Below, in pieces: positions 12,080-26,441 of a DNA stretch of 62,933 nucleotides (position 1 is its first letter; each line of letters begins with the position of its first letter). The stretch lies in assembly GCA_016876035.1 (NCBI GenBank), contig VGOE01000003.1:1-62933 (forward strand), given 5' to 3'. The position numbers and the translations under genes were made by a program. The notes below the pieces were generated by a model that was not told the origin of the DNA, searched no databases, and was given only the letters and a program-made list of their open reading frames with translations. The DNA comes from Chloroflexota bacterium. Lineage in GTDB: Bacteria > Chloroflexota > Dehalococcoidia > UBA2247 > RBG-13-53-26.

Positions 12080-13426
12080 CTAGCCGGGCATCATCTCGGG
12101 TAACTCTTCCAGGGCGGACTCCACTTGCTCCTCCAGAAAAGGCTGGTCTGCCACTGCGCCAGCAAGGAAGTCCCTGAAGGTAACAAGATCAAGATTACTG
12201 TTGGTGCTTAAGACAAACAGGATGTTCTTGCGTTCGCCTTTTTCTCTGCAAGCTATGGCTTCATCCATAACCGCCTTGACTGTGTACGAGGACTCAGGAG
12301 AGCATACAAACCCCTCGGCCTGAGCAAAGGCCACCGCAGCCTCAAGAGCCTGACCTTGCGTGTAGGCTTTGGCTTCGATCTGTTTTTCTCTGTACAAGGC
12401 GCTGATCAGCGGCGATATGCCGTGGTAACGCATGCCGCCAGCGCGGATGCCCGGGGGCATGAAGCTGTGGCCGAGGGTGTACATCTTTAGCAAGACGGAT
12501 AGACCCTCGGCGTCTGCGTAGTCATAGGCGTAACGCCCTTTGGAAAGGCTTGGAGCGGCCGATGCTTCCACTGCGATCATCCGTCTCCCCTCCCTCCGCT
12601 CGCGGTAGAAAGGCAAAATAAGACCTCCGAAAGCGCTACCCCCACCCACAGCGCCGCAAATAATGTCAGCATCAGCACCTGCCCGGCGTAGCTGGAGTCG
12701 GGCTTCAAGTCCGATAACAGTTTGATGCAGCAAAACATGATTCATTACTGTGCCCCAGGCAAATTTCACATCATCGCGGACGCTAGCCTCTTCAAAGGCC
12801 TCGCTCAAAGCAATACCCAAGCTGCCAGGGCTTTGGGGGTATTGCGAGCGTATTTTCTTTCCTGTGCGCGTGTCCTCGCTGGGGCTCGGAATCACCTCGG
12901 CTCCCAGTATCTCCATGATGGCTCGCCCGTAGAGCTTCTCCTCAAAGCTGGCCCTAACCATGTACACTTTGCAGCGGATGTTGAAGTAATTGCAGGCGAT
13001 GGCCAGCGAGGCACCCCATTCTCCATTCGCCGTGGCTGTAACAATGCCTTTTGCACCCTCGCGGCTCGCGTAGTATGCTTGGGCCACGGCAGTATTGAAC
13101 TCGTAGCTGCCTGACGGACTACCACCCTCGTACTTGTAGAAGATTCGAGCAGGCGTTCCCAGTCTCTTTTCGAACCTCTCAGCTCGGAAGAGAGGCGTCG
13201 GCCTCCATTCGGAATACACTTGGCGAACCTCATGGGGGATAAGCATGAATCGTTCCCCCGTGTCCAATTCCTGCTGAATGATGGCCAATGGGGCTAGTGA
13301 TCTAAGGTCATGCGGGCTCAGGGGGTAGCCGCTGGGACTCATTGGTGGGGGCAGCTTGAACCCCAAGTCGGGGATGACGTTATACCACTTATCTGATAGC
13401 TCCTTGGCGTCGAGCGAGATTCTCAT
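12080..13426 (-). CDS. TrpB2-like (tryptophan synthase beta-like) protein lacking the Schiff-base lysine
   Basis: Full TrpB2 scaffold (WYN, WRPTPL.RA, YKYEG, HVLLHQTVIG, GGGS, KMYTLGH, RYHG), but GSYEFNTA instead of GSHKPNTA. Confidence 0.85.
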   Translation of the reverse strand: MRISLDAKELSDKWYNVIPDLGFKLPPPMSPSGYPLSPHDLRSLAPLAIIQQELDTGERFMLIPHEVRQVYSEWRPTPLFRAERFEKRLGTPARIFYKYEGGSPSGSYEFNTAVAQAYYASREGAKGIVTATANGEWGASLAIACNYFNIRCKVYMVRASFEEKLYGRAIMEILGAEVIPSPSEDTRTGKKIRSQYPQSPGSLGIALSEAFEEASVRDDVKFAWGTVMNHVLLHQTVIGLEARLQLRRAGADADIICGAVGGGSAFGGLILPFYRERREGRRMIAVEASAAPSLSKGRYAYDYADAEGLSVLLKMYTLGHSFMPPGIRAGGMRYHGISPLISALYREKQIEAKAYTQGQALEAAVAFAQAEGFVCSPESSYTVKAVMDEAIACREKGERKNILFVLSTNSNLDLVTFRDFLAGAVADQPFLEEQVESALEELPEMMPG

Positions 13427-13453
13427 GCCAATGCCTCCTCTTCAAAGGGATGC

Positions 13454-13518
13454 TTGACAAATCGTGTATGTAAGTGTATGATCACTTACATGCTAGCACC
13501 TAATTGTTTGCCTGTCAA
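13454..13518. promoter_or_regulatory. Overlapping divergent sigma70 promoters with a 24-bp palindromic operator
   Basis: Plus strand: TTGACA 13454-59, N17, TATGAT 13477-82. Minus strand: TTGACA 13518-13, N17, TAGCAT 13495-90. Palindrome ATGTAAGTG-TATGAT-CACTTACAT at 13468-13491. Confidence 0.7.
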
Positions 13519-13579
13519 TATCCAGTTCAAGGGGACGCAAAGATCTGGGCCGCTTGAGACTCAGACATTCGTCGGAGGT

Positions 13580-13694
13580 GCTAGTTCCGCGTAACAACCG
13601 AGATTCTTCTCCCGCCTCAGGCGGGCGGATCAGAATGACACCTGCGGACCTGTCACCCTGAACGTAGCGAAGGGTCTCATGTTACGAAGCACTA
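13580..13694 (+). repeat. REP/BIME-like palindromic dispersed repeat, copy 1
   Basis: GAGATTCTTCTCCCGCCTCAGGCGGGCGGATCAGAATGACA...TGTCACCCTGAACGTAGCGAAGGGTCTC; inverted near-identical copy at 30578-30704. Confidence 0.8.
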
Positions 13695-13727
13695 GTAGGG
13701 GATAAGCAGAATTGGTCAGGGGCCTGT

Positions 13728-14345
13728 ATGAGTCAGATTAGAGAGACCAGCGAAATCCGGCAGCAGCAAATTGTGGAGGCTGCACGCAGCATTGTTACTG
13801 CTCGGGGTATAGAGGCCCTGACCATTCGCGAGATAGCCAAGGAAGTAGGCATTTCAGAGGCCGATATCTACCGGCACTTTGCCAGCAAGAAGGTAATCCT
13901 CCTATTTCTCATTGAGGATGTTGAGAAAACGCTGATGGAGATGGTGGAGCGAGCTGCTTCTGAGGAGCGAGAGCCGGTACAGAGCTTGGAAAATGTGCTC
14001 AAGGCTCACCTGTCCTACGTGGAGCAGCGGCGCGGTGTCTCCTTGTTAGTGGTTGCTGAGACCCTTCGTCTGGCCGACAAAGACCTGCGAAAGAGGATGT
14101 TTGAAGTTGTGAACCGCTACATAGGGCGCATCGCGGAGATCCTGGCCCAGGGCGTGAGATCGGGACACGTCAGAAAGGATATAGACCTGGATACTGCCGC
14201 CCTGACTTTTTTCGCCCTGGTTCACGCTACGGTTACTCTATGGGCCCTCAGCGACGCTAGTTTTTCGCTTACAGAGAGGCATGAGTCTCTATGGGAGTCG
14301 TATCTTGCAGGCATTGCCGAAAAGGCTTTTGAATCAGGGCCATAA
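13728..14345 (+). CDS. TetR/AcrR-family transcriptional regulator
   Basis: RQQQIVEAA...GIEALTIREIAKEVGISEADIYRHFASK HTH. Confidence 0.92.
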   Translation: MSQIRETSEIRQQQIVEAARSIVTARGIEALTIREIAKEVGISEADIYRHFASKKVILLFLIEDVEKTLMEMVERAASEEREPVQSLENVLKAHLSYVEQRRGVSLLVVAETLRLADKDLRKRMFEVVNRYIGRIAEILAQGVRSGHVRKDIDLDTAALTFFALVHATVTLWALSDASFSLTERHESLWESYLAGIAEKAFESGP

Positions 14346-14523
14346 GGGTGGTAGAATGCACCTATGGCAAAGCCCTGGTATTAGCGAAGCCTCCGGGTAA
14401 ATCACAGGTATTGTCCAGTCATAACGCAAGACATCGATTTTTTGCGGATAACAACATTATGCTACTCTGGGAATTTGTGTGTTTGGTGACGAAGCCTAAC
14501 TGTCGGCGACAAAGAGGTGCCTG

Positions 14524-15858
14524 ATGCTAACACAAGATGTTGAAATGCGAGACGTACTTATTGCACTAGCTATTGCTCTGCCCACTTTCCTTGCTGCCGG
14601 ACTCTTTTATTACAGCCTGCGGCATTTAGCGCGCCGGCTGGCAGCCAAGACGACGACAGTCCTGGACAACATGCTGGTAGAGGCTCTGCAATGGCCTGTT
14701 CTCGTAGGCATAGTCTTGGCGGGGATCTATTTTTCTGTCCTTTCCCTCCCCTGGAAGGAATCTGCAGACTTCGAAATCAGGAGAGGTTTCTATGTAGCAT
14801 TCTATGTCCTGGCAGCTTACGGAGGCGCAACGCTGTTAGACGCCCTGTTTCGGTGGTTCAAGCTGGAGGTGGCCCCTAAAACCGCCACCGCCCTGGATGA
14901 CTGGATTATTGGTTTCCTCAGATTACTTACGCCAGTCATCGCTGCCTTCTTAGCGCTGCTGGGCTGCTTGGGACTATTTGACATTGAAACAGAGGGGATT
15001 AAGGACTGGCTGGTGAAACATGGAACACGTATTGGCCTTGTCATCTTCATTTCAGTGGCTGTGCTTTTCTTCCTCGGCATCGCTCTGCCTCGTGGCATAA
15101 AAGCCTTTGTGCTCAGGGAGGCTACGGGACAACCTGAAGAGGAGATACAAAAGAGGACGCAGACTCTGACCCGTGTATTGGTAGCTACAGGGCAGGTCTT
15201 CATCATCCTGATAGCCATCTTCATCATCTTGTCTGAGGTGGGCATAAACATCGCTCCTGCCCTGGCGGGGGTTGGGGTAATCGGTATCGCCGTCGGCTTT
15301 GGTGCTCAGAGCCTGATCAAGGATATCATTGCTGGCCTTTTCATAGTACTGGAGAACCAATATCGCGTGGGCGATGTGGTCGGTATAGCTGACAAGCGAG
15401 GCCTGGTAGAGCAGATCAACCTGCGACGCACGGTACTCAGGGACATGGATGGCATCGTTCATTCGGTGCCCAATGGAGAGATAAGGGTAGCCAGCAATTT
15501 CACCAAGGAGTGGTCTCGGGTCAACCTGAACATCAGTGTTGCCTACGGAACAGACCTGGACCGCGCCATTGCGGTCATTAACCGGGTCTGCGGGGAGATG
15601 GCGGCAGACCCGCAGTGGGCGCCTCTGATTCTCAAGACCCCGGAGGTACTGCGAGTTGACAACCTTGGAGCCTCAGGCATTGAGCTCAAGGTCGTGGGTG
15701 ACACCAAGCCGATCCAGCAGTGGGCGGTGATGGGGGAAATCCGCAAAAGGGTGAAGAAAGCCTTCGATGAGGAAGGCATCGAGATACCGTGGCCTCATAC
15801 CAAGGTCTACTTCGGCAATACCCCTCTCCCCCCTACATGGCCGGAGGGAGAAGGATAG
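14524..15858 (+). CDS. Mechanosensitive channel MscS family with extended N-terminal TM region
   Basis: GVIGIAVGFGAQSLIKDIIAGLFI, YRVGDVV, VPNGEI..ASNFT, GIEIPWPH. Confidence 0.92.
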   Translation: MLTQDVEMRDVLIALAIALPTFLAAGLFYYSLRHLARRLAAKTTTVLDNMLVEALQWPVLVGIVLAGIYFSVLSLPWKESADFEIRRGFYVAFYVLAAYGGATLLDALFRWFKLEVAPKTATALDDWIIGFLRLLTPVIAAFLALLGCLGLFDIETEGIKDWLVKHGTRIGLVIFISVAVLFFLGIALPRGIKAFVLREATGQPEEEIQKRTQTLTRVLVATGQVFIILIAIFIILSEVGINIAPALAGVGVIGIAVGFGAQSLIKDIIAGLFIVLENQYRVGDVVGIADKRGLVEQINLRRTVLRDMDGIVHSVPNGEIRVASNFTKEWSRVNLNISVAYGTDLDRAIAVINRVCGEMAADPQWAPLILKTPEVLRVDNLGASGIELKVVGDTKPIQQWAVMGEIRKRVKKAFDEEGIEIPWPHTKVYFGNTPLPPTWPEGEG

Positions 15859-15868
15859 GGGGTGGGCA

Positions 15869-17344
15869 ATGTGGACGAAGGAAAGTCTGCGAGAGTTGGT
15901 AAGGACTAAGCTCGGCGATTACCTTTTCATCGTCGTATCCAACAGGGAGCCCTATATCCATGTTTACGCCGGCTCTGAGATCAAGTGCGAGGTGCCGGCC
16001 AGTGGGCTCACGGTAGCCCTCGATCCGGTGATGCAGGCTTGCGGAGGAACCTGGATAGCTCATGGTAGCGGCGATGCTGACCGCGAGGTGGTTGACGAGC
16101 AAAATAAGGTCGCTGTCCCTCCGGAGGAGCCCCGATATTCCTTAAGGCGGGTGTGGCTCTCCAAGGAGCAAGAGGACGGCTACTACTTTGGCTTCTCCAA
16201 TGAAGCTCTCTGGCCGCTGTGCCACATATCCTATACTCGCCCAATGTTCAACGAATCTGACTGGGAGACTTATAAAGAGGTGAACCAGCTTTTCGCCGAT
16301 AACATCCTTGATGAAGTAGCGGACAGGAGAGCCTTTGTCTTTGTGCAGGACTATCATTTAACACTCTTACCTAGATTCATCAAGGAGAAGAACCCCAACG
16401 TCATAATTGCCCAGTTCTGGCATATTCCCTGGCCTAACCCGGAAGCCTTCCGCATCTGCCCCTGGCAAAAGGAAATCCTCGAGGGGCTGCTGGGAAATGA
16501 CCTGCTGGGGTTCCACATCCGCTACCACTGCAACAATTTCTTGGATACTGTAGATCGGGCGCTGGAAACGCGGGTAGACCGGGAAAGGTACGAGGTCAAT
16601 AGAGGCGGCAAGAAGACTACAGTTTGTCCTTTCCCTATTAGCGTTGACTTTGAGGACATCTCGAGGGAGGCCCAAGGAGAAGACATAACAACAGAGATTA
16701 GAAGGTTAAAGAGCAGGCTGGGTCTGCGAGATGAACTGGTGGGCCTTGGCCTGGATCGCATCGACTACACCAAAGGCATCCCGGACAGGCTGCGGGCCTT
16801 TGATCGTTTCTTGGAGAAGTATCCTGGTTACAAAGAACGAGTGGTCTTCATTCAGGCGGGCGTCCCTAGCCGCAGTCACATAGGCGCTTATAAGAGGCTG
16901 AACGAAGAGATAGATAACCTAATAGAGGAAGTGAACTGGAAGCATGCCTTCGGGCACTGGAGGCCGGTGATCTACCTTCGTGAGCACCTGTCGCCCACCA
17001 CGCTGATGGCACTACGCCGCATTGCCAGTTTCTGCGTCGTCAGTTCGCTGCACGACGGGATGAATCTGGTAGCCAAAGAGTTTGCGGCCAGCCGCTTCGA
17101 TGAGGACGGTGTGCTCATCCTCAGCCCCTTCACGGGGGCTGCCAGGGAACTGACCGATGCCCTGCTGGTGAATCCCTATGCCACTGACCATTTCGCTGAA
17201 GCTATCAATAAGGCACTGGAGATGCCCCAGTCAGAGAGACAGAGACGGATGCGGAAAATGCGGCAGGTGGTGCAAGAGAACAATATCTACAAATGGGCCG
17301 CGGCCATAATATCGGAGCTGGTGAAATTTGAATTTGGAGAATGA
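15869..17344 (+). CDS. otsA: Trehalose-6-phosphate synthase
   Basis: VSNREP, GL..AL, GFSNE.LWPLCH, QDYHL, FWHIPWP, DRIDYTKGI, DGMNLVAKE; ATG 15869 chosen over the track start 15767. Confidence 0.93.
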   Translation: MWTKESLRELVRTKLGDYLFIVVSNREPYIHVYAGSEIKCEVPASGLTVALDPVMQACGGTWIAHGSGDADREVVDEQNKVAVPPEEPRYSLRRVWLSKEQEDGYYFGFSNEALWPLCHISYTRPMFNESDWETYKEVNQLFADNILDEVADRRAFVFVQDYHLTLLPRFIKEKNPNVIIAQFWHIPWPNPEAFRICPWQKEILEGLLGNDLLGFHIRYHCNNFLDTVDRALETRVDRERYEVNRGGKKTTVCPFPISVDFEDISREAQGEDITTEIRRLKSRLGLRDELVGLGLDRIDYTKGIPDRLRAFDRFLEKYPGYKERVVFIQAGVPSRSHIGAYKRLNEEIDNLIEEVNWKHAFGHWRPVIYLREHLSPTTLMALRRIASFCVVSSLHDGMNLVAKEFAASRFDEDGVLILSPFTGAARELTDALLVNPYATDHFAEAINKALEMPQSERQRRMRKMRQVVQENNIYKWAAAIISELVKFEFGE

Positions 17345-17347
17345 CCA

Positions 17348-18148
17348 TTGCAGCATCTCTTCTCTGTTTGGCCTGAGGTTGCCCAGCGCCTCAAAGCCGC
17401 ACGGGGTGTGCTACTTTTCTCTGACTACGATGGCACCCTTACGCCTATCGTGGATAGGCCGGAGCTGGCAGACTTGCCAGCAGAAACGAGGCGACTTCTG
17501 CGAGCTTTGGCTCACCGGCACCGCTTCACAGTTGGCATCATCAGCGGTCGGGCGCTATCGGATCTCAAGCACAGGGTCGGCATCGAGAGCATTGTCTATG
17601 CTGGCAACCACGGGCTGGAAATCGAGGGGCCGGGCATTAGCTTTATCAACCCGCTGGCGGAGGAGATGAAGCCTGTGTTGCGCCTGATACACCAGGCATT
17701 GAGCAAGGCGCTGGCTACGGTGAGAGGTTCTCTAGTTGAGGACAAGGGTCTTAGCTTGAGCGTGCACTACCGCCGGGTGGAGGAAAAGGAAGTGGAGAAA
17801 GCCAAAACCATCTTCGAACGCATCCTGCACGTACCTCGCCTATCGGGGATGATCAAGGTTACTTCGGGGAAAAAGGTTCACGAGGTAAGGCCAGCGGTAG
17901 ACTGGGATAAGGGCAAAGCCATAAAATTGCTTATGAGGAGATATGGCAAAGGGGGGAGGAGAAGCGGGCTGTTGCCTATCTATCTGGGTGATGACTTAAC
18001 CGACGAGGATGGCTTTAGAGCTATTGAACGCTACGGAGATGGCCTCACCGTATTCGTGGGTGGAGAGAATGACAGCACCGTGGCGCGCTATTTCTTAAGG
18101 TCACCACATGACGTGGAGAGATTCTTGAGCATGCTGCTTGATCTGTAA
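17348..18148 (+). CDS. otsB: Trehalose-6-phosphate phosphatase (HAD)
   Basis: FSDYDGTLTPI, IISGR, YAGNHG, GKKVHEVRP, WDKG.A, YLGDDLTDEDGF; TTG start. Confidence 0.92.
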   Translation: MQHLFSVWPEVAQRLKAARGVLLFSDYDGTLTPIVDRPELADLPAETRRLLRALAHRHRFTVGIISGRALSDLKHRVGIESIVYAGNHGLEIEGPGISFINPLAEEMKPVLRLIHQALSKALATVRGSLVEDKGLSLSVHYRRVEEKEVEKAKTIFERILHVPRLSGMIKVTSGKKVHEVRPAVDWDKGKAIKLLMRRYGKGGRRSGLLPIYLGDDLTDEDGFRAIERYGDGLTVFVGGENDSTVARYFLRSPHDVERFLSMLLDL

Positions 18149-18159
18149 AAAGGCAGAAA

Positions 18160-19536
18160 ATGACGGAATTTACCTGGCACGATGCAGTTATCCCTGTGGC
18201 TGTCTTCCTGGCCACCCTTATTGCCACAGTCTGGTTGAGACAGGTTGGCTACAGCGCTCTCAAGCGGTGGATGGAGAAAATCCAGTGGCAGGGCGACGAG
18301 CTCCTGCTCCAGGCCCTCAGAGGGCCTTCGATTCTTTGGTGTCTGCTGATAAGCGCTGGGTTGGCAGTGGCAGTATCGGATTTATCCACGAGGTGGAAGG
18401 ATGACGCAGCAGATGGCTTGTGGACCCTTTTGATCCTCTCCCTTGGCCTCACTGCTCTCAATCTGGCTGGCAAGTTCATCCCGTTTTACGGAGAGAGGTG
18501 GAAGCTTCCCCGGAACGTTATCTCTCTCAGCAACAACGTGGCCCGCGTTGTTATTCTAATTGTGGCAGGATTGATGCTGCTGGATGTCTGGGGAGCACCC
18601 ACAAGCCCTGTGTTGCTGGTCATAGCCATAGCAGCCATAGCCGCGTTGCTAGCCTCCAGGGGAGCACTCCCTAACCTTTTCGCCTGGTTTCAGCTCAGCG
18701 CCACCGGACATATTAAGGTCGGCGACTACATTAAGCTGGAGACCGGTGAGGAAGGCTACGTTATGGAAATGGACTGGAGAAACACCAAAATCAAAGCCCT
18801 GGATGAAAGCACCGTTCTTATCCCAAACAGCAAACTGATGCATTCTACCGTAATAAACTATGGGCGGCCGCTGAAAAAGGCGAAGGAGCCGTTCCGTTTC
18901 TACTCCAGGGTTCACCTCAAGGAGCTGACCGGGCTAACGGCGAAAAACCTCCAGGAGCTAGCAACCATTCTGAAAACGGTACCTGACCCGATCATCTACT
19001 ATCATACCCATCAGTTTCTGGAGGAGCATCACTACCTCACCCCTGAGCCTGCTAACGACTTTGCCCTCTGGGTAAGGGACGCCCTCGGCAATGAGGTTTT
19101 GGGAGAGAGACTCGCGGCTATTGATACCTTTGAATTCGCCGCCCTGGGAGCTCTGCGAGAGAGACTGGTCGCCATCATTGAGGAACACCTGACCCTGGAA
19201 GCCCAGTATGGCGATGGCCACCGAAACGCTCCGGAGGGGAGAGAGTTTCACTTCATTAAGTCAGTGAGCGCAATTCTGTCCACCCCTTATGTTGTCCGCG
19301 ACCTGAGGGAGTTTGTGGAAGCGTTGCGAAAAATCAGCCTTGGCGCTCTTTACTTCCATGTTTTTGAGTCCAGACTGCGGTTAAGCAGAGGCTCAAACGA
19401 TTTCTCCATCTGGATAGAAGAGAGCCTGGGTGACAAGGAGCTTGCGGGGGAGATCGCCCGGCTCGACCCCTATAACTATACGCTGGAGGGACTGAGATCG
19501 TCACTGATACGGATTATCGAAAAACGCATCAAGTAA
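18160..19536 (+). CDS. MscS TM/beta domain fused to DUF5752 tandem-repeat domain
   Basis: N-terminal TM helices plus IKVGDYIKL..G.V....WR.T.I....STVLIPNS, then two repeats of F.F...L.EL...L..V....(I/L)Y(Y/F)H....NDF..W....LG...L. Confidence 0.8.
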   Translation: MTEFTWHDAVIPVAVFLATLIATVWLRQVGYSALKRWMEKIQWQGDELLLQALRGPSILWCLLISAGLAVAVSDLSTRWKDDAADGLWTLLILSLGLTALNLAGKFIPFYGERWKLPRNVISLSNNVARVVILIVAGLMLLDVWGAPTSPVLLVIAIAAIAALLASRGALPNLFAWFQLSATGHIKVGDYIKLETGEEGYVMEMDWRNTKIKALDESTVLIPNSKLMHSTVINYGRPLKKAKEPFRFYSRVHLKELTGLTAKNLQELATILKTVPDPIIYYHTHQFLEEHHYLTPEPANDFALWVRDALGNEVLGERLAAIDTFEFAALGALRERLVAIIEEHLTLEAQYGDGHRNAPEGREFHFIKSVSAILSTPYVVRDLREFVEALRKISLGALYFHVFESRLRLSRGSNDFSIWIEESLGDKELAGEIARLDPYNYTLEGLRSSLIRIIEKRIK

Positions 19537-20750
19537 GGATTTCCGACTACGAGGCCATTGTTGGCCGCAGCACTATTGAGGAGTTACGGCTGCTGGCCAG
19601 CAAGCTCTCAGGAAAGGTAATCCAGAACATAAACTCCACCTTCAGTGGTGGTGGCGTGGCTGAGATTTTGAGCCGTATGGTGCCCCTTCTGGGGCAATTA
19701 GGAGTGAATGCTCACTGGAATGTTATTAAGGGCAGCGAGGAGTTCTTCCAGGTAACCAAGAAATTTCACAATGCCCTCCATGGCAGGGCAGAACAGATTT
19801 CCCCCCAGGACTTCTCTGTCTTTCTGGAAATAAGCGAGAAGAACATTCAGGAGTTGAGCCTGCAAGGAGACGTCATCTTCGTCCATGATCCCCAGCCGGC
19901 GGCACTCGTCAAAAGGAAGAAGGAGATAGGGAAGCAATGGATATGGAGATGTCATATCGACGTTTCCAGGCCTAACGAGGAAGTGTGGAACTTCCTCCTT
20001 CCCTTTGTAGTCCAGTATGATGCGGCAGTCTTCTCCTCTCCATCCTTCTCCCGTGAGCTTCCCATACGTCAGTTTCTCGTCTCACCGTCCATAGACCCCT
20101 TGAGCGACAAGAACAAGGAACTTCCCCAGGACGCCATTGATGCTGTCCTGTCCAAGTATGGCATCCCAAAGGATAAGCCAATAGTCACCCAGGTCTCCCG
20201 CTTCGACTATCTCAAGGATCCCGTGGGCGTCATTCAGGCTTTTAAGATGGTTAAGAAAAGCGTAGGCTCAACACTCGTGTTGGCTGGTGGCACTGCCACC
20301 GATGATCCTGGGTCAGACAAGGTGCTGGCTGAGGTAAAGGACAGAGCGGAGGGTGATCCCGATATCCATGTGCTGTTAATTCCGCCTGGTAGTGACATAG
20401 AGATCAACGCACTGCAAAGGGGTAGCACTGTGGTGGTGCAAAAATCATTGAAAGAAGGCTTCGGCCTCACTGTGAGCGAAGCCCTGTGGAAATCAAAGCC
20501 TGTGGTGGCCTCTGCCGTAGGGGGGATACCGCTTCAGGTGAAGAATAGATTCACCGGTCTCCTTTCCCACGGCATTGAAGGGACAGCCTATGCCATCAGG
20601 CAACTTCTTACCAATCAGGAGTATGCCAGGTGGCTAGGGCAGAACGGCAGGGAACATGTCAGGCAGAATTTTCTTATCACCCGTCACTTGAGGGACTACC
20701 TGCTCCTGTTCCACTCCCTCGGCCATCCTGAGGACGTTATCTATCTCTGA
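19533..20750 (+). CDS. treT: Trehalose glycosyltransferring synthase TreT (GT4); conserved N-terminus lacks a canonical start
   Basis: NINSTFSGGGVAEIL, FVHDPQP, WRCHID, QVSRFDYLKDP, EGFGLTVSEA. The homologous frame extends about 40 codons upstream of the track start 19656, to GTA at 19533. Confidence 0.85.
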   Translation, partial: VRISDYEAIVGRSTIEELRLLASKLSGKVIQNINSTFSGGGVAEILSRMVPLLGQLGVNAHWNVIKGSEEFFQVTKKFHNALHGRAEQISPQDFSVFLEISEKNIQELSLQGDVIFVHDPQPAALVKRKKEIGKQWIWRCHIDVSRPNEEVWNFLLPFVVQYDAAVFSSPSFSRELPIRQFLVSPSIDPLSDKNKELPQDAIDAVLSKYGIPKDKPIVTQVSRFDYLKDPVGVIQAFKMVKKSVGSTLVLAGGTATDDPGSDKVLAEVKDRAEGDPDIHVLLIPPGSDIEINALQRGSTVVVQKSLKEGFGLTVSEALWKSKPVVASAVGGIPLQVKNRFTGLLSHGIEGTAYAIRQLLTNQEYARWLGQNGREHVRQNFLITRHLRDYLLLFHSLGHPEDVIYL

Positions 20751-20871
20751 GGAACCTGTAGGTTGAGCACCTCGCTTCTGGAGAGATTTGACTTCGTGGG
20801 CGGCTGTGCTGGCTCCGGAGCGGTAAGGTCAGTTTTCAGACGTTAGAGGTCCGCCTAGCGAGTGATGAAGT

Positions 20872-23574
20872 ATGGAAAGTAACAATAAGCCGGCAAGATG
20901 GCATAACCTTGGTATCGAGGAGACCTTAAGAACCCTCGATTCGGATCCATCTGGTCTTTCGGAGACCGAAGCCCAGAAGCGACTGCATCAGTATGGGCCA
21001 AATGAGCTTACGGAAAAGGGCAAGACCTCGCCCTTCCTTGTTTTCTTGCGTCAATTCGCCAGCCCTCTCATCTATATCCTGCTTGTTGCCGCCGTAGTTG
21101 AACTGGCCGCCATGCACAAGCCTACCGACGCCGCCGTGATACTGGCTGTGGTCACCATCAATTCTATCATCGGTTTCGTGCAGGAGAGCCGCGCCGAACG
21201 GGCTATGGAAGCTCTCAAACGGCTGGCTGTGCCCCATGCCAAGGTGCTAAGGCAGGGTACCGTTACCAGGATTTCTGCCAGCCAGTTGGTCCCCGGTGAC
21301 GTCATTCTACTTGAAGCCGGAGACAAGGTTCCCGTGGACGCCAGGCTTATTGAGGCGGCCAATTTATCAGTGGACGAGTCCATCCTTACCGGCGAATCCG
21401 TTCCGGTGGAGAAATTCATCGGCGCTATTGATGGTGAGGCAACGGTAGCTGACATGGGCAATATGGCACACATGGGCTGTGCCGTGGTCAATGGCCGTGG
21501 AGTGGCCGTGGTCACTGCTACCGGCATGAATACCGAAATTGGGAAGATTACCGCCCGGGTGCAGGAGACCAAGCCCCCACCCACTCCCCTCCAGCGAAAT
21601 GTGGCGAGGCTGGGGCGCTATATCGGGATTCTGGTGCTCAGCATTATTGCAGTGCTTATCCTCATCGGGGTGGCTGAGGGGTATAGCCTTGAAGAGATGT
21701 TCACCCTGGCCGTAGCCGCCGCCGTTTCCGCCATTCCGGAAGGTCTCCCGGTCATGGTGACTGTAGTCCTGGCTTTGGGGATGAGACGAATGGCAAAAAG
21801 GCACGCCCTTATCCGGAAATTGACGGCGGTGGAGACAATGGGTGCCGTTACCGCCATATGCTCAGACAAGACGGGCACGCTAACCGAAAGCGAGATGACG
21901 CTTCGCCAGGTATACCTTTGTGGCAGGACGATAGAAATCACTGGGGCTGGATACCGCCCAGAGGGGGAGTTTCTGGAAAACGGTCAGAAAATTGACCCTC
22001 AAAAGGATGAAAGCCTTTCCCTGGCTCTTAGAATCAGCGCCTTGTGTAATGACTCGACGCTGAAATCAGATGGTGATAAGCACCAACTTCTTGGTGATCC
22101 CACCGAGGGAGCCTTACTGGTGGCTGCCCTTAAGGCGGGGTTGAGTCAGAAGGCATTGCAGGAGGAGCAGCCGCGACTGGCCGAACTGCCCTTCTCGAGC
22201 GAGAAGCGCTACATGGCAACTCTCCATCCCTGTCAGGATGGCCTGGCAGTGGTTTATGTGAAGGGGTCGGTAGACAAGGTGCTGGCGATGAGCCGGCGGA
22301 TACTCGAAAACGGGGTTCCACATGAACTATCCGCCGAGAAGAAGGATGATATTGAGCAGAAAAACCTGCAGATGGCATCGAAAGCGCTGCGAGTGATGGC
22401 GCTGGCTTATGCCGACTGTTCTCCTGCCCCGGAGCAGCTCTCTCATGAACATCTTGATGGCTCTCTGACCCTGGTTGCCCTGGTGGGAATGATTGATCCT
22501 CCCCGACAGGAGGCTAAGAAGGCGGTTGCCGACTGTAAACGCGCTGGTATTAAGGTAATGATGATAACCGGTGACCAGAAGGCGACGGCGGTAGCCATTG
22601 CCGAAGAACTTAGCCTTCCTCCTGGCGAAGCGGTGACCGGCCTGGAACTGGGCCAGATGAGTGATGAAGAACTCAACAACAGGGTAGAGCGCATCTCCGT
22701 CTTCGCCCGCGTTGAGCCTATACACAAACTGAGAATAGTCAATGCCATGAAGTCGAGGGGATATACTGTGGCTGTGACCGGAGATGGAGTGAATGATGGC
22801 CCTGCACTGAGAGCAGCCGATATCGGGATAGCCATGGGCATTAAAGGCACCGATGTGGCGCGTGAAGCTTCGGATATGGTGCTCACCGACGATAACTTTG
22901 CCTCCATCGTTGCTGCGGTGGAGGAGGGAAGGGTTATTTTCGGCAATATCCGTCGTTCTGTTTTCTATCTTCTGAGCACGAGTGCGGGTGAGATATTTAC
23001 CTGGCTCATCGCTATCTTGGCTGGTTTTCCCTTGCCCGTGGTCGCTGTCCAGATTCTGTGGATCAACCTGGTTACTGATGGTGTGTGCACCATACCGCTG
23101 GGTCTGGAACCCAAGCACAGTAACGTGCTGGAAGAACCGCCGCGGCGGCACAAGGCAGGAATCGTCTATAAGGGGATGCTGTGGAGAATCGCCTTTATTG
23201 CCCTGTTCATGTCCTTGGGGACCTTCCTCATCTTCCGGTGGGAGTTACCACGGGTGGGGCTGGAAGAAGCCCGGACAATTGCTTTCTGTATGCTGGTAGC
23301 TTTCCAGTGGTTCAACGCCCTCAACGCCCGTTCTGATCAGCAGTCTCTTTTCAAGCTGGGTCTATTCAGCAATCGCTTGCTTCTTGGTGGAATAGGGCTG
23401 GCTATCATACTGCAGGCAATGGTCATCTATGCCCCACCGTTCCAGAGGCTATTCCATACCGTGCCTTTAGGCTTCGGGGACTGGGGAGTCGTTGTTTTGA
23501 TGGCGGGTGGCATCTTGGTCATTGAAGAGCTACGCAAGTTAGTAGCTCCTCGGCTTTTCGTCCGTGGGAAATAG
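20872..23574 (+). CDS. Cation-transporting P-type ATPase (type IIA, Ca2+-like)
   Basis: LTGES, IPEGLP, CSDKTGTLT, KGS, MITGD, TGDGVND, QILWINLVTDG. Confidence 0.93.
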   Translation: MESNNKPARWHNLGIEETLRTLDSDPSGLSETEAQKRLHQYGPNELTEKGKTSPFLVFLRQFASPLIYILLVAAVVELAAMHKPTDAAVILAVVTINSIIGFVQESRAERAMEALKRLAVPHAKVLRQGTVTRISASQLVPGDVILLEAGDKVPVDARLIEAANLSVDESILTGESVPVEKFIGAIDGEATVADMGNMAHMGCAVVNGRGVAVVTATGMNTEIGKITARVQETKPPPTPLQRNVARLGRYIGILVLSIIAVLILIGVAEGYSLEEMFTLAVAAAVSAIPEGLPVMVTVVLALGMRRMAKRHALIRKLTAVETMGAVTAICSDKTGTLTESEMTLRQVYLCGRTIEITGAGYRPEGEFLENGQKIDPQKDESLSLALRISALCNDSTLKSDGDKHQLLGDPTEGALLVAALKAGLSQKALQEEQPRLAELPFSSEKRYMATLHPCQDGLAVVYVKGSVDKVLAMSRRILENGVPHELSAEKKDDIEQKNLQMASKALRVMALAYADCSPAPEQLSHEHLDGSLTLVALVGMIDPPRQEAKKAVADCKRAGIKVMMITGDQKATAVAIAEELSLPPGEAVTGLELGQMSDEELNNRVERISVFARVEPIHKLRIVNAMKSRGYTVAVTGDGVNDGPALRAADIGIAMGIKGTDVAREASDMVLTDDNFASIVAAVEEGRVIFGNIRRSVFYLLSTSAGEIFTWLIAILAGFPLPVVAVQILWINLVTDGVCTIPLGLEPKHSNVLEEPPRRHKAGIVYKGMLWRIAFIALFMSLGTFLIFRWELPRVGLEEARTIAFCMLVAFQWFNALNARSDQQSLFKLGLFSNRLLLGGIGLAIILQAMVIYAPPFQRLFHTVPLGFGDWGVVVLMAGGILVIEELRKLVAPRLFVRGK

Positions 23575-23840
23575 AGAGGAGAAGAGGGAGTGGTGATTCA
23601 CCGAGGGGCAATCCGTCAAGGATTGGCGGACTTCACCAAGAGAGAGCTTATGGTTCTGCTTCCCGTGGTATACGGAAGGCACAATCTGCCTGTATTGGCT
23701 GGCTTTCCTTTGGGGTTATCAAGCAACAGAATGGTAAAAATGTAGTAAGGAGGTCTTGTCTAGATTATAGAAGGTGGTAGAAATCTAACCGCTGGGTTGA
23801 CCAGACAAAGCCTGACCAACCCGGCCCCAGGAGTAAGGTT

Positions 23841-26441
23841 ATGGATATAAACAGATTTACGGAGAAGGCCCAGGAAGCTATTGCGGTTGCCCAGAAACTG
23901 GCAGCAGAAAGAAATCACACCCAGATTGAGGTGGTGCATTTGCTCTATGCTCTGGTTGACCAGGAGGGCGGTGTTGTTCCTCAAATCCTGGGCAAGCTGG
24001 GAGTGGATGCTGCTCAGGTTAAGCAACAGCTATCGGGCGAGCTACAGCGCTTACCGCGGGCCCATGAGCCAGCACGAGCCTTTCCGTCCCAAAATTTGGG
24101 CCAGGTCCTGGAAGGTGCTGAGAAAGAGGCGGCCACCTTCAAGGACGAGTACATCAGCACGGAACACTTGCTTCTGGCCATTGTGGAACTGGATGCTGGT
24201 GCTGCTGGCCGTCTGCTAAAGGGCTACGGGATAACCAGGGATCGCATTTACCAGGTGCTGGCCTCAATACGCGGCGGGCAGCGGGTGACAGATGCCAGCC
24301 CCGAAGGCAAATACCAGGCCCTGGAGAAATATGGCCGTGACCTGACCGAGATGGCCCGACGGGGCAAACTCGATCCGGTTATTGGACGGGATGATGAGAT
24401 CAGGCGGGTGATCCAGGTGCTGTCCCGACGTACCAAGAATAACCCTGTGCTCATTGGCGAGCCAGGGGTGGGTAAGACGGCGATTGCTGAGGGCCTGGCC
24501 CAGCGGATTGTGCGAGGTGATGTTCCCGAAGGTTTGAAGAACAAGCGGATTGTGGCTCTGGACCTGGGGGCACTGGTCGCAGGCTCCAAGTACCGTGGCG
24601 AGTTCGAGGAGAGGCTCAAAGCGGTGCTGAAGGAGATCCAGCAATCCGAAGGTCAGGTGGTAATGTTCATTGACGAACTGCATACGGTAGTGGGCGCTGG
24701 AGCGGCCGAAGGCGCTATCGATGCCTCCAACATGCTCAAGCCCATGCTGGCCCGCGGTGAGCTGCACTGCATTGGCGCTACCACCCTGGATGAGTACCGC
24801 AAGCACATAGAAAAGGATGCCGCTCTGGAGAGGCGCTTCCAGCCGGTGCTGATTGGCGAGCCTTCTGTAGAGGGCACCATCTCCATACTGCGTGGCCTGA
24901 AGGAGCGCTACGAAGTCCACCACGGCGTGCGCATCAAGGACTCTGCTCTGGTGGCCGCCGCGGTGCTGTCTCACCGCTACATCAGTGATCGCTTTCTGCC
25001 CGACAAGGCCATAGACCTGGTAGACGAAGCCGCTTCCAAGCTGCGCATCGAGATAGACAGCCTGCCAGCGGAACTGGACGAGGTGAACCGCCGCGTGATG
25101 CAGTTAGAAATTGAGAGAGAGGCCCTCAAGAAAGAGAAGGACGATGCCTCCCGAGATAGGCTGGCCGAGCTAGAGAAAGAGCTGGCCAATCTGAAGGAGG
25201 AGAGCACCCGTCTCAACGCTCAGTGGCAGGCGGAGAAAGAGGATATCCAGGCGTTGCAACAGCTTAAAGAGAGGATAGAGCAGGTTCGCCATCAGATAGA
25301 GCTTGCGGAGCGATCCGCCAACTATGAGCAGGCAGCCCAGTTGAAATACGGTGCGCTGGCGGAGATGGAAAGACAGTTAAAAGAGAAAGACGAGCAATTT
25401 TCGGCCAAGAAAGGGCAGCGTTTGCTGAAAGAGGAGGTGGATGAGGAGGATGTGGCTGAGGTAGTGTCCCGCTGGACGGGTATACCGGTGAGCCGTCTGA
25501 TGGAGGGTGAAATCCAGAAGCTGCTCCAGATGGAAGATCGGCTGCACCTCCGGGTAGTGGGCCAGGACGAAGCCCTGACGGCCGTGGCCAACGCCATCCG
25601 CCGCGCCCGGGCTGGCCTTCAGGACCCGAACCGGCCCCTGGGCAGCTTCATTTTCCTGGGGCCGACCGGCGTCGGCAAGACGGAGCTGGGGCGGGCGCTG
25701 GCGGAGTTCCTCTTTGATGACGAGCGGGCCATGGTGCGGCTGGATATGTCGGAGTACATGGAGAAACATACCGTCTCCCGCCTCATCGGTGCTCCTCCTG
25801 GATATGTGGGGTATGAGGAGGGGGGGCAACTGACCGAGGCGGTACGGCGCAAGCCTTACAGCGTCATACTGCTGGACGAGATAGAGAAAGCTCACCCAGA
25901 TGTCTTCAATGTGCTGCTTCAGATACTGGATGACGGTCGGCTGACTGACGGGCATGGCCGCACGGTGGACTTTCACAATACGGTGCTTATCATGACCAGT
26001 AACCTGGGCAGCCAGTGGATTGTAGACCTTGGCCCCGGTCAGGATGCGGAGATAAAGCGGCGGGTGATGGAGGCCCTGAAAGCCCAGTTCCGCCCCGAGT
26101 TTCTCAACCGGGTGGACGAGGTGATAATCTTCCATCAGCTCACGCGGGAACACCTGATGAAGATTGTGGATATCCAGCTTGCCAGCCTGAAGAAACGGCT
26201 GGCCGACCGGCACATTGACATCGAGCTTACGCCGGCAGCCAAAGAATTCCTGGTGAAAGAGGGCTATGATCCAGTCTACGGGGCGCGGCCCCTGAAGCGC
26301 ACTATCCAGCGTCTCGTTCTGGACCCTCTAGCGGTGGAAGTGCTGAGGGGCGGGTTCAAGGATGGTGACACGGTCGTCGTTGATGCCAAGCGGGGCAACG
26401 TTTCGTTTTCCAGAAAAAAGGAGGCGTCCGTCTCCGTGTGA
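23841..26441 (+). CDS. clpB: Disaggregase ClpB
   Basis: Clp-N repeats, GEPGVGKT, coiled-coil M domain, [19 protein letters not shown]. Confidence 0.97.

Follow-up and report, generated by a model that had tools for sequence, protein, structure and literature searches.

What is an MscS-type channel gene that lacks the usual cytoplasmic cage doing in the middle of a trehalose operon? This question is raised by a gene at positions 18,160 to 19,536 of contig VGOE01000003.1 (GCA_016876035.1, a Chloroflexota bacterium of the class Dehalococcoidia), of which positions 1 to 62,933 of the forward strand, called the window here, were analysed. The gene encodes the membrane part and beta-domain of an MscS channel joined to a DUF5752 domain, the domain that makes up the Thermoproteus tenax protein OrfY. 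In place of the alpha/beta vestibule and terminal barrel of MscS, OrfY/DUF5752 follows without a linker, and in genomes OrfY is invariably accompanied by the gene for the trehalose synthase TreT. The reading favoured below is that the product may be a tension-gated valve belonging to the trehalose operon.

Domain architecture of the fusion

Two Pfam domains were recognised in the predicted protein (Table 1). PF00924, the MS_channel beta-domain, was matched at amino acids (aa) 171-235 (7e-15, 55.3 bits against a gathering cut-off of 20.2), and PF19027 (DUF5752) was matched at aa 243-454 (1.9e-64, 217.3 bits against a cut-off of 23), covering positions 2-208 of the 208 in the profile. No match to PF21082, which is the alpha/beta domain at the C-terminus of MscS, was obtained in the fusion at E <= 0.01, whereas the neighbouring MscS gene at 14524-15858 does match it. 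Solved MscS and YnaI chains align only to residues 110-238 of the query, ending near residue 182 of E. coli MscS, where the beta-domain ends. Neither the alpha/beta vestibule of MscS nor the terminal beta-barrel is present in the fusion, and a model of its C-terminal domain matched no MscS cytoplasmic domain. These results bear out the statement of the first-pass annotation that the vestibule is missing.

The same annotation had described the transmembrane (TM) and beta-domains as running directly into two DUF5752-like repeats. The direct join is confirmed: the last stretch of the beta-domain is LIPNSKLMHSTVINYG (aa 220-235), and the beta-domain 'VINYGRP' abuts 'LKKAKEPFRF', the conserved N-terminus of free OrfY proteins, with no linker between them. 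The two repeats have to be redescribed, as they are the halves of one DUF5752 domain that contains an internal duplication (26% identity, E 9e-12).

An AlphaFold2 (AF2) model of the whole fusion (mean predicted local distance difference test score, pLDDT, 85.4; predicted template modelling score, pTM, 0.58) agrees with this division. Hydrophobic segments near aa 8-27, 52-77, 86-105 and 120-143 correspond to outer helices modelled at 6-41, 46-72, 77-113 and 118-143, and these are followed by a kinked pore helix (TM3a 149-165, break 166-168, TM3b 169-182) and by the beta strands of the beta-domain (190-235). The membrane part is thus made of five TM helices including the pore helix, and the best MscS-family matches to the model by Foldseek were to YnaI, which also has five. 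In the C-terminal part a long beta-hairpin followed by five helices is seen in two copies. Among 76 orthologues the most conserved parts of the protein are the beta-domain/OrfY junction and the OrfY domain, which counts for a tight mechanical coupling that may exist between the two.

Distribution of the fusion

The genome that contains the window (2.53 Mb, 97.7% complete) carries a single copy of the fusion and is a draft of 159 contigs, so that an artefact has to be considered, in which a fragment of MscS and a separate orfY gene were joined by assembly or gene calling. This possibility is effectively refuted by comparative data. A protein search returned at least 982 homologues, and all 120 of those listed carry PF00924 together with PF19027 in proteins of 438-612 aa. 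They are catalogued under the names 'DUF5752 family protein' (NCBI) and 'small-conductance mechanosensitive channel' (JGI). Species-representative genomes were also scanned with an alignment of the fusion, and the locus counts in this paper refer to the best 80 of at least 571 relatives found in this way. All 80 are fusions, mostly from metagenome-assembled genomes of Dehalococcoidia and other Chloroflexota, with the remainder from Nitrospirota/Thermodesulfovibrionia and Thermodesulfobacteriota ('Deltaproteobacteria'). An intact, full-length open reading frame (ORF) is present in 76 of the 80, from different species and projects, and with the at least 120 protein clusters and a junction that ranks among the best-conserved stretches this argues against a misjoin.

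A split form, with an MscS-core gene separate from orfY, was sought, and the only candidate was rejected. In this metagenome contig (L005:3648-7375) otsA, otsB and the fusion are each frameshifted in two, so that an error-rich assembly mimics a split MscS and OrfY. Variants of about 603-612 aa were also found, in which the outer TM module is duplicated at the N-terminus (L003:7001-8839; P0010, P0012, P0016, P0023, P0090, P0095). The family has a scattered distribution: of 301 genomes sampled evenly from the phylum to which the window belongs, five gave a strong DUF5752 match, and four of these five are fused.

Membrane core and pore

Residues of the query are numbered as the E. coli MscS residue plus 55. 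On this alignment the gate residues L105 and L109 of E. coli MscS correspond to I160 and L164, while G113, N117 and G121 correspond to G168, N172 and G176. Leucine is found at 160 in a fraction of 0.82 and at 164 in 0.74 of the 76 orthologues, the highest values within TM3a, and conservation is also high at R167 (0.97) and at the equivalents of G121 (0.87) and N117 (0.79). With gate-residue equivalents and the predicted TM3a/TM3b kink both kept, the pore looks maintained.

The loss of the cage need not abolish conduction. TcMscS of Trypanosoma cruzi, which consists of a pore helix and beta-domain with no alpha/beta domain, is a heptameric mechanosensitive channel (PMC12334622), and the 2025 structural paper termed it the only MscS-like channel of this kind (PMC12334622). 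Its structure (9BGQ) superposes on the model of the fusion by Foldseek with a TMt of 0.84 and a root-mean-square deviation of 2.5 A over 135 columns. TcMscS is thus a precedent for conduction by a core that lacks the alpha/beta domain, and a second precedent for a working cage-less core is the MSC protein of T. tenax, which is compared with the fusion below.

The OrfY/DUF5752 domain

The C-terminal 220 or so aa of the fusion match OrfY of T. tenax (PDB 4CSO) over its full length (phmmer 1.5e-22). A model of the domain by itself (AF2, pLDDT 89.0) aligned with 4CSO by Foldseek at E 1.2e-15, with a template modelling score of 0.72-0.74 over 217 columns and 29-30% identity. Apart from 4CSO, no PDB entry was matched by the domain model at E < 2, and no likeness to a DNA-binding fold was seen. 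OrfY/DUF5752 is an orphan in its fold, built as a tandem duplication with pseudo-symmetry. Among diverse members, the residues that never or hardly ever vary are F245/F247, H282, D300-F301 and W304 in repeat 1, and F363/F365, H400, R407, N413, D414-F415 and W418 in repeat 2, so that both repeats share one motif, H...NDFxxW.

An exhaustive profile-free search with the domain gave 843 DUF5752 clusters, most of them free proteins of 210-230 aa. A third architecture is found in P0182, P0189 and P0191, in which a maltokinase (TIGR02457 TreS_Cterm type, Mak_N_cap) carries a full DUF5752 at its C-terminus; P0191 matches TIGR02457 with 388 bits, above the cut-off. Maltokinase belongs to the route from trehalose to glucan, and since OrfY is also fused to this enzyme it can be regarded as a module of the trehalose pathway.

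Other apparent fusions were set aside. The joins in OtsB-DUF5752 (P0206), in fragments of DUF5752-TreT (P0241, P0265), in P0233 and in Mem_trans-DUF5752 (P0260) are garbled or of low complexity. Frameshifts or read-through probably account for these calls, and they were not used as evidence. Weak matches to a single DUF5752 motif (E of about 1e-4) were obtained in same-class genomes, in open frames of only 109-112 aa (G078:C2:206238-206348, G105:C1:733279-733395, G141:C42:56077-56172), and these may be single-repeat OrfY-like paralogues.

The trehalose operon and the pairing with TreT

In the window the genes are arranged in the order mscS-otsA-otsB-fusion-treT on the same strand, with gaps of 3-11 nucleotides (nt; Table 1), which agrees with the placement of the gene between otsB and treT in the first-pass annotation. 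The downstream gene encodes a TreT-like glycosyltransferase of family 4 (GT4) that matched the TreT model NF041139 at 3.6e-92 with 309 bits, below the equivalog cut-off of 775 bits. A longer ORF call for OtsA, beginning at 15767, overlaps the MscS gene, and the ATG at 15869 is the likelier start.

Table 1. Features of the fusion gene and its surroundings in the window
Feature	Position (nt)	Strand	Remarks
TetR-family regulator, upstream of the row	13728..14345	+	TetR_N + TetR_C_4
Canonical three-domain MscS, first gene of the packed row	14524..15858	+	PF21088 + PF00924 + PF21082
otsA, trehalose-6-phosphate synthase, GT20	15869..17344	+	PF00982 5.5e-129; likely start ATG 15869
otsB, trehalose-6-phosphate phosphatase	17348..18148	+	TIGR00685 8.6e-56, above cut-off; 11 nt upstream of fusion
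MscS(TM+beta)-OrfY/DUF5752 fusion gene	18160..19536	+	458 aa; Pfam PF00924 + PF19027
Four N-terminal TM helices, YnaI-like outer paddle (aa 1-145)	18160..18594	+	hydropathy, AF2, Foldseek
Pore helix TM3a, kink, TM3b (aa 146-182)	18595..18705	+	aligned to E. coli MscS 91-127
MscS beta-domain (aa 186-235)	18715..18864	+	PF00924; AF2 strands
OrfY/DUF5752 repeat 1 (aa 239-348)	18874..19203	+	beta-hairpin plus 5 helices; YYHTH...NDFxxW motif
OrfY/DUF5752 repeat 2 (aa 362-458)	19243..19533	+	YFHxF...NDFxxW motif; PF19027, 4CSO match
TreT-like GT4 trehalose synthase	19533..20750	+	PF21269 TreT_GT1 6.6e-49; PF00534 2.9e-23
Ca/Mg-type P-type ATPase, after the trehalose row	20872-23574		

A TreT homologue lies directly downstream of the fusion, on the same strand, in all 72 fused loci with room for it. 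Upstream of the fusion OtsA is found in 48 of 60 loci and OtsB in 42 of 60, and one or the other is present somewhere in the locus in 53 of the 60. The same order, otsA-(otsB)-fusion-treT, recurs in three further metagenome loci with unrelated flanks. The outer neighbours are less constant, as a TetR gene is near the fusion in 12 of 80 loci and an MscS similar to the one at 14524-15858 in 12 of 80, plus locus L001, in which the MscS and the ATPase also flank the cluster, arranged differently from the window. Close free relatives (217 aa, 60-69% identical) at L088 and L089, the two loci at which the context of stand-alone DUF5752 genes was sampled, lie in orfY-treT pairs whose genes overlap by 4 nt, and no MscS is encoded close by. 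OrfY is therefore paired with TreT in the fused and in the sampled free state. Together with the size of most free members, these pairs bear out the statement in the first-pass annotation that DUF5752 usually stands alone beside treT, and the constant position of TreT and the junction described next lend strong support to its proposal of a coupling to trehalose metabolism.

At this junction the conserved N-terminus of TreT (RISDYEAIVG...) is encoded from the stop codon of the fusion onward (GTAA; 19530-19660), and no canonical start (ATG, GTG or TTG) occurs in the window before 19656. Among the 34 loci with a tight junction, seven have ATGA or GTGA, one has CTAA, and 26, including the window, have ATA or GTA overlapping a TAA or TAG stop; the 26 have no canonical start ahead of the conserved TreT N-terminus. 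This suggests that TreT may be started at tight junctions by termination-reinitiation at a near-cognate codon. Since stop and start overlap, the ribosomes that make TreT would be those that have only just completed the fusion protein, as would fit a stoichiometric partner. A -1 frameshift joining OrfY to TreT was also considered and set aside: the TreT frame is open from 19476, but the zero frame has no canonical slippery heptamer. A search of positions 13000-24000 against Rfam gave no riboswitch or other RNA match at E <= 1.

An alternative explanation of such a locus would be that the fusion is a generic osmotic safety valve, with OrfY as a mere structural substitute for the cage and the operon position reflecting co-regulation under osmotic stress. 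Osmoadaptation clusters often include MscS genes, the window contains an osmotic-stress block, and TcMscS shows that the cage is dispensable. We nevertheless consider this explanation unlikely, as it does not account for an OrfY that is tied to TreT even where there is no MscS and is also fused to maltokinase, for the unbroken adjacency of TreT with stop-start coupling, or for the fact that the OrfY domain is the best-conserved part of the protein.

Origin of the fusion and exchange of its output domain

Among canonical MscS proteins, those nearest to the N-terminal half are three-domain proteins of about 345 aa from Nitrospirota/Thermodesulfovibrionales, which are 33-41% identical to it. In four loci of this group the gene for such a protein lies immediately upstream of the fusion, at a distance of about 75-100 nt (L038:782-1771, L062:2297-3328, L065:6877-7896, L075:6891-7925). 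Because the closest full-length relative of the membrane half sits right beside the fusion, this arrangement suggests that the fusion may have arisen from a tandem MscS duplicate that was joined to a neighbouring orfY.

In a tree of the OrfY domain the fused members form one clade (Shimodaira-Hasegawa-like approximate likelihood ratio, SH-aLRT, 99) nested among free OrfY proteins, and free proteins of 217 aa are nested again inside the fused clade. A single fusion with one or more later fissions is the probable course of events.

A second change came to light in a tree built from the membrane half. Proteins of about 363 aa form a monophyletic clade next to the fusion P0118, to which it is sister with support of 100/97. 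These proteins have the same MscS core and the first 35 or so residues of OrfY, and then continue into a LuxR/GerE helix-turn-helix (HTH) domain (PF00196, 7.8e-22). Because this remnant of OrfY is retained and the clade is nested beside fusions, the HTH form is best explained by replacement of the output domain, and it may be a transcription regulator linked to membrane tension. Members are P0282, P0286 and P0288-P0292, with loci at L006:1535-2629 and L007:1800-2891. At L006 the gene lies between a Usp gene and a TetR gene similar to that of the window, which precedes it, and the short L006 and L007 contigs carry no trehalose genes.

A proposed tension-gated valve of the trehalose operon

With moderate confidence we favour the reading that the fusion is a tension-gated heptameric valve of the trehalose operon, in which a ring of OrfY domains docks or regulates TreT, senses a metabolite of the trehalose pathway, or does both. 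The protein would assemble as an MscS-type heptamer and form the tension-gated pore of the operon, and seven OrfY domains under the beta-ring would take the place of the cage. Coupling could follow two routes. OrfY might dock or regulate TreT, with which it would be co-translated through stop-start coupling, or it might sense a pathway metabolite, for which trehalose is the obvious candidate. As a result, synthesis at high osmolarity and release upon downshock would be coordinated at the membrane. Heptamer formation, conduction and the role of OrfY are inferred here, and what the data show is the architecture, its conservation, the identity of the domain as OrfY, its fixed pairing with TreT and the conserved gate positions.

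Several observations weigh against this reading. The kink glycine G113 is not conserved in the family, although AF2 predicts that the kink itself is kept, and TM3a is bulkier than in E. coli MscS, with Ala, Ala and Leu in place of G101, G104 and G108. Conservation in TM3 does not prove conduction, because assembly of a heptamer also needs a conserved face. A canonical MscS adjoins the fusion in the window and in the four Nitrospirota loci, so that a generic valve is already present there. The stand-alone OrfY-TreT pairs inside the fused clade indicate that OrfY works without the membrane part, and the HTH clade nested in the fusions points to a membrane module that is able to serve an output domain as sensor or anchor. 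In the literature no functional test of OrfY/4CSO was found, the CASP11 paper included, and the molecule name of 4CSO contains the term 'transcription factor', which is the wording of the depositors only.

The main rival, possible though doubtful, draws on much of this evidence. The fusion would then be a non-conducting tension sensor or membrane anchor, with OrfY relaying the signal to TreT, and the synthesis of trehalose rather than its release would be controlled. OrfY and TreT are the invariant core of the system, while the MscS part was gained once and lost in at least one nested stand-alone clade. In another nested clade a LuxR-type HTH stands in for OrfY, so that the membrane module tolerates swaps of its output. 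Canonical valves are encoded beside the fusion, and the translation of TreT seems to hinge on that of the fusion gene. The HTH swap, the fission events and the ordinary MscS beside the fusion thus all speak for this rival. However, the gate equivalents and the hinge residues of TM3b are conserved, as would be expected of a working pore, and both known MscS-like proteins that lack the alpha/beta domain behave as channels or in a channel-like manner. It is also hard to see how a signal would pass through the beta-domain, since in MscS this domain moves little during gating.

The depositors' name for 4CSO raises another alternative, that of a membrane-tethered transcription regulator in which OrfY binds DNA and the MscS module controls its access. 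At the corresponding position the derived sister clade does carry a genuine LuxR/GerE HTH, and OrfY is encoded within an operon that it could regulate. Even so, this is very improbable. Pfam found no HTH in the OrfY domain, Foldseek found no DNA-binding or other fold within the limits given above, and the domain is acidic to neutral, with a pI of 6.2 here and family medians of 5.8-6.1. OrfY is C-terminally fused to an enzyme in the maltokinases, and translational coupling to TreT is more in keeping with a stoichiometric partner than with a regulator.

Comparison with known systems

The preferred reading, that of a valve coupled to trehalose metabolism, can be set beside several known proteins. 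OrfY of T. tenax resembles the C-terminal domain in its full length, in its tandem-repeat build and in the motif of each repeat, but it is a free cytosolic protein of about 216 aa, whereas here the domain is joined to an MscS membrane core. In T. tenax, too, treT is reportedly the genomic partner of OrfY (Kouril et al. 2008).

A parallel to the operon as a whole is the msc-gt-tpsp trehalose operon of T. tenax. It encodes an MscS-like protein of 197 aa, MSC (TTX_1304a), that resembles the TM region of MscS only (PMC3634074). MSC is toxic in E. coli, with growth partly rescued by high osmolarity (PMC3634074), and was proposed by Zaparty et al. 2013 to be a release valve for trehalose (PMC3634074). 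The operon was considered by its authors to be unique to Thermoproteus and Pyrobaculum (PMC3634074). The window shares with it a cage-less MscS-like gene that is tightly packed and co-oriented with genes for a GT4 and for trehalose-6-phosphate synthase and phosphatase (TPS/TPP). The two differ in that MSC has no OrfY and the PimA-like GT of T. tenax activates a fused TPSP, whereas the window has separate otsA and otsB genes, a TreT-like GT4 (PF21269) and an OrfY that is fused to the channel core.

Among the channels, TcMscS likewise has a pore helix and beta-domain and no alpha/beta domain, but its membrane helices number only two and are short, and its tail is short and disordered, as opposed to the five TM helices and the folded domain of 220 aa in the fusion. 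E. coli MscS and YnaI (2OAU, 6RLD, 6URT) share the hydrophobic-gate pore helix, the kink and the beta-domain, and YnaI also the five-TM layout; the fusion differs from them in lacking PF21082, the side portals and the C-terminal barrel, and in the substitutions at the three TM3a glycines already mentioned. In the bCNG channels, which have a cyclic-nucleotide-binding domain, and in the EF-hand proteins Msy1/2, an MscS core is combined with a ligand-sensing cytoplasmic domain, but that domain is added after an intact cage, whereas in the fusion the cage is replaced.

Novelty and implications

Among the accessible papers, the literature search found none on the fusion, nor one that refers to DUF5752, to OrfY in connection with T. 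tenax or trehalose, or to 4CSO in this sense. Already known are the family as catalogued in Pfam and under NCBI names, and the crystal structure of OrfY, 4CSO. The context statistics, the conservation of gate residues, the comparison with TcMscS, the derived LuxR-HTH clade, the adjacent canonical paralogue, the tree with fusion and fission, and the predominance of non-canonical TreT starts are new here.

A wider idea, which we hold only tentatively and think rather improbable, is that the MscS-derived core is a mechanosensory input module, instead of or besides a valve, that passes membrane tension to exchangeable cytoplasmic output domains. If so, with OrfY the core would switch TreT on or off, or would be gated by the solute that is released, and in the form that bears a LuxR-type HTH it would act on transcription. 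Such proteins would make up a new class of one-component transducers from tension to metabolism and from tension to transcription, and a function would for the first time be assigned to OrfY/DUF5752, which with its pseudo-two-fold build would be a sensor or adaptor of the two-fold symmetric trehalose.

MscS is the textbook model of bacterial mechanosensation, and its cytoplasmic cage is treated as integral to the conduction path. Here a widespread bacterial lineage has swapped this cage for a folded orphan domain that is known only for its partnership with TreT. Two questions are thereby made directly testable, namely what role OrfY/DUF5752 has and whether the synthesis of a compatible solute is physically coupled to its emergency release. 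The architecture of the fusion suggests that in these bacteria the synthesis of a protective sugar may be physically tied to a membrane-tension device, and the LuxR-HTH sister clade hints that the MscS core may have been reused as a tension sensor for other outputs.

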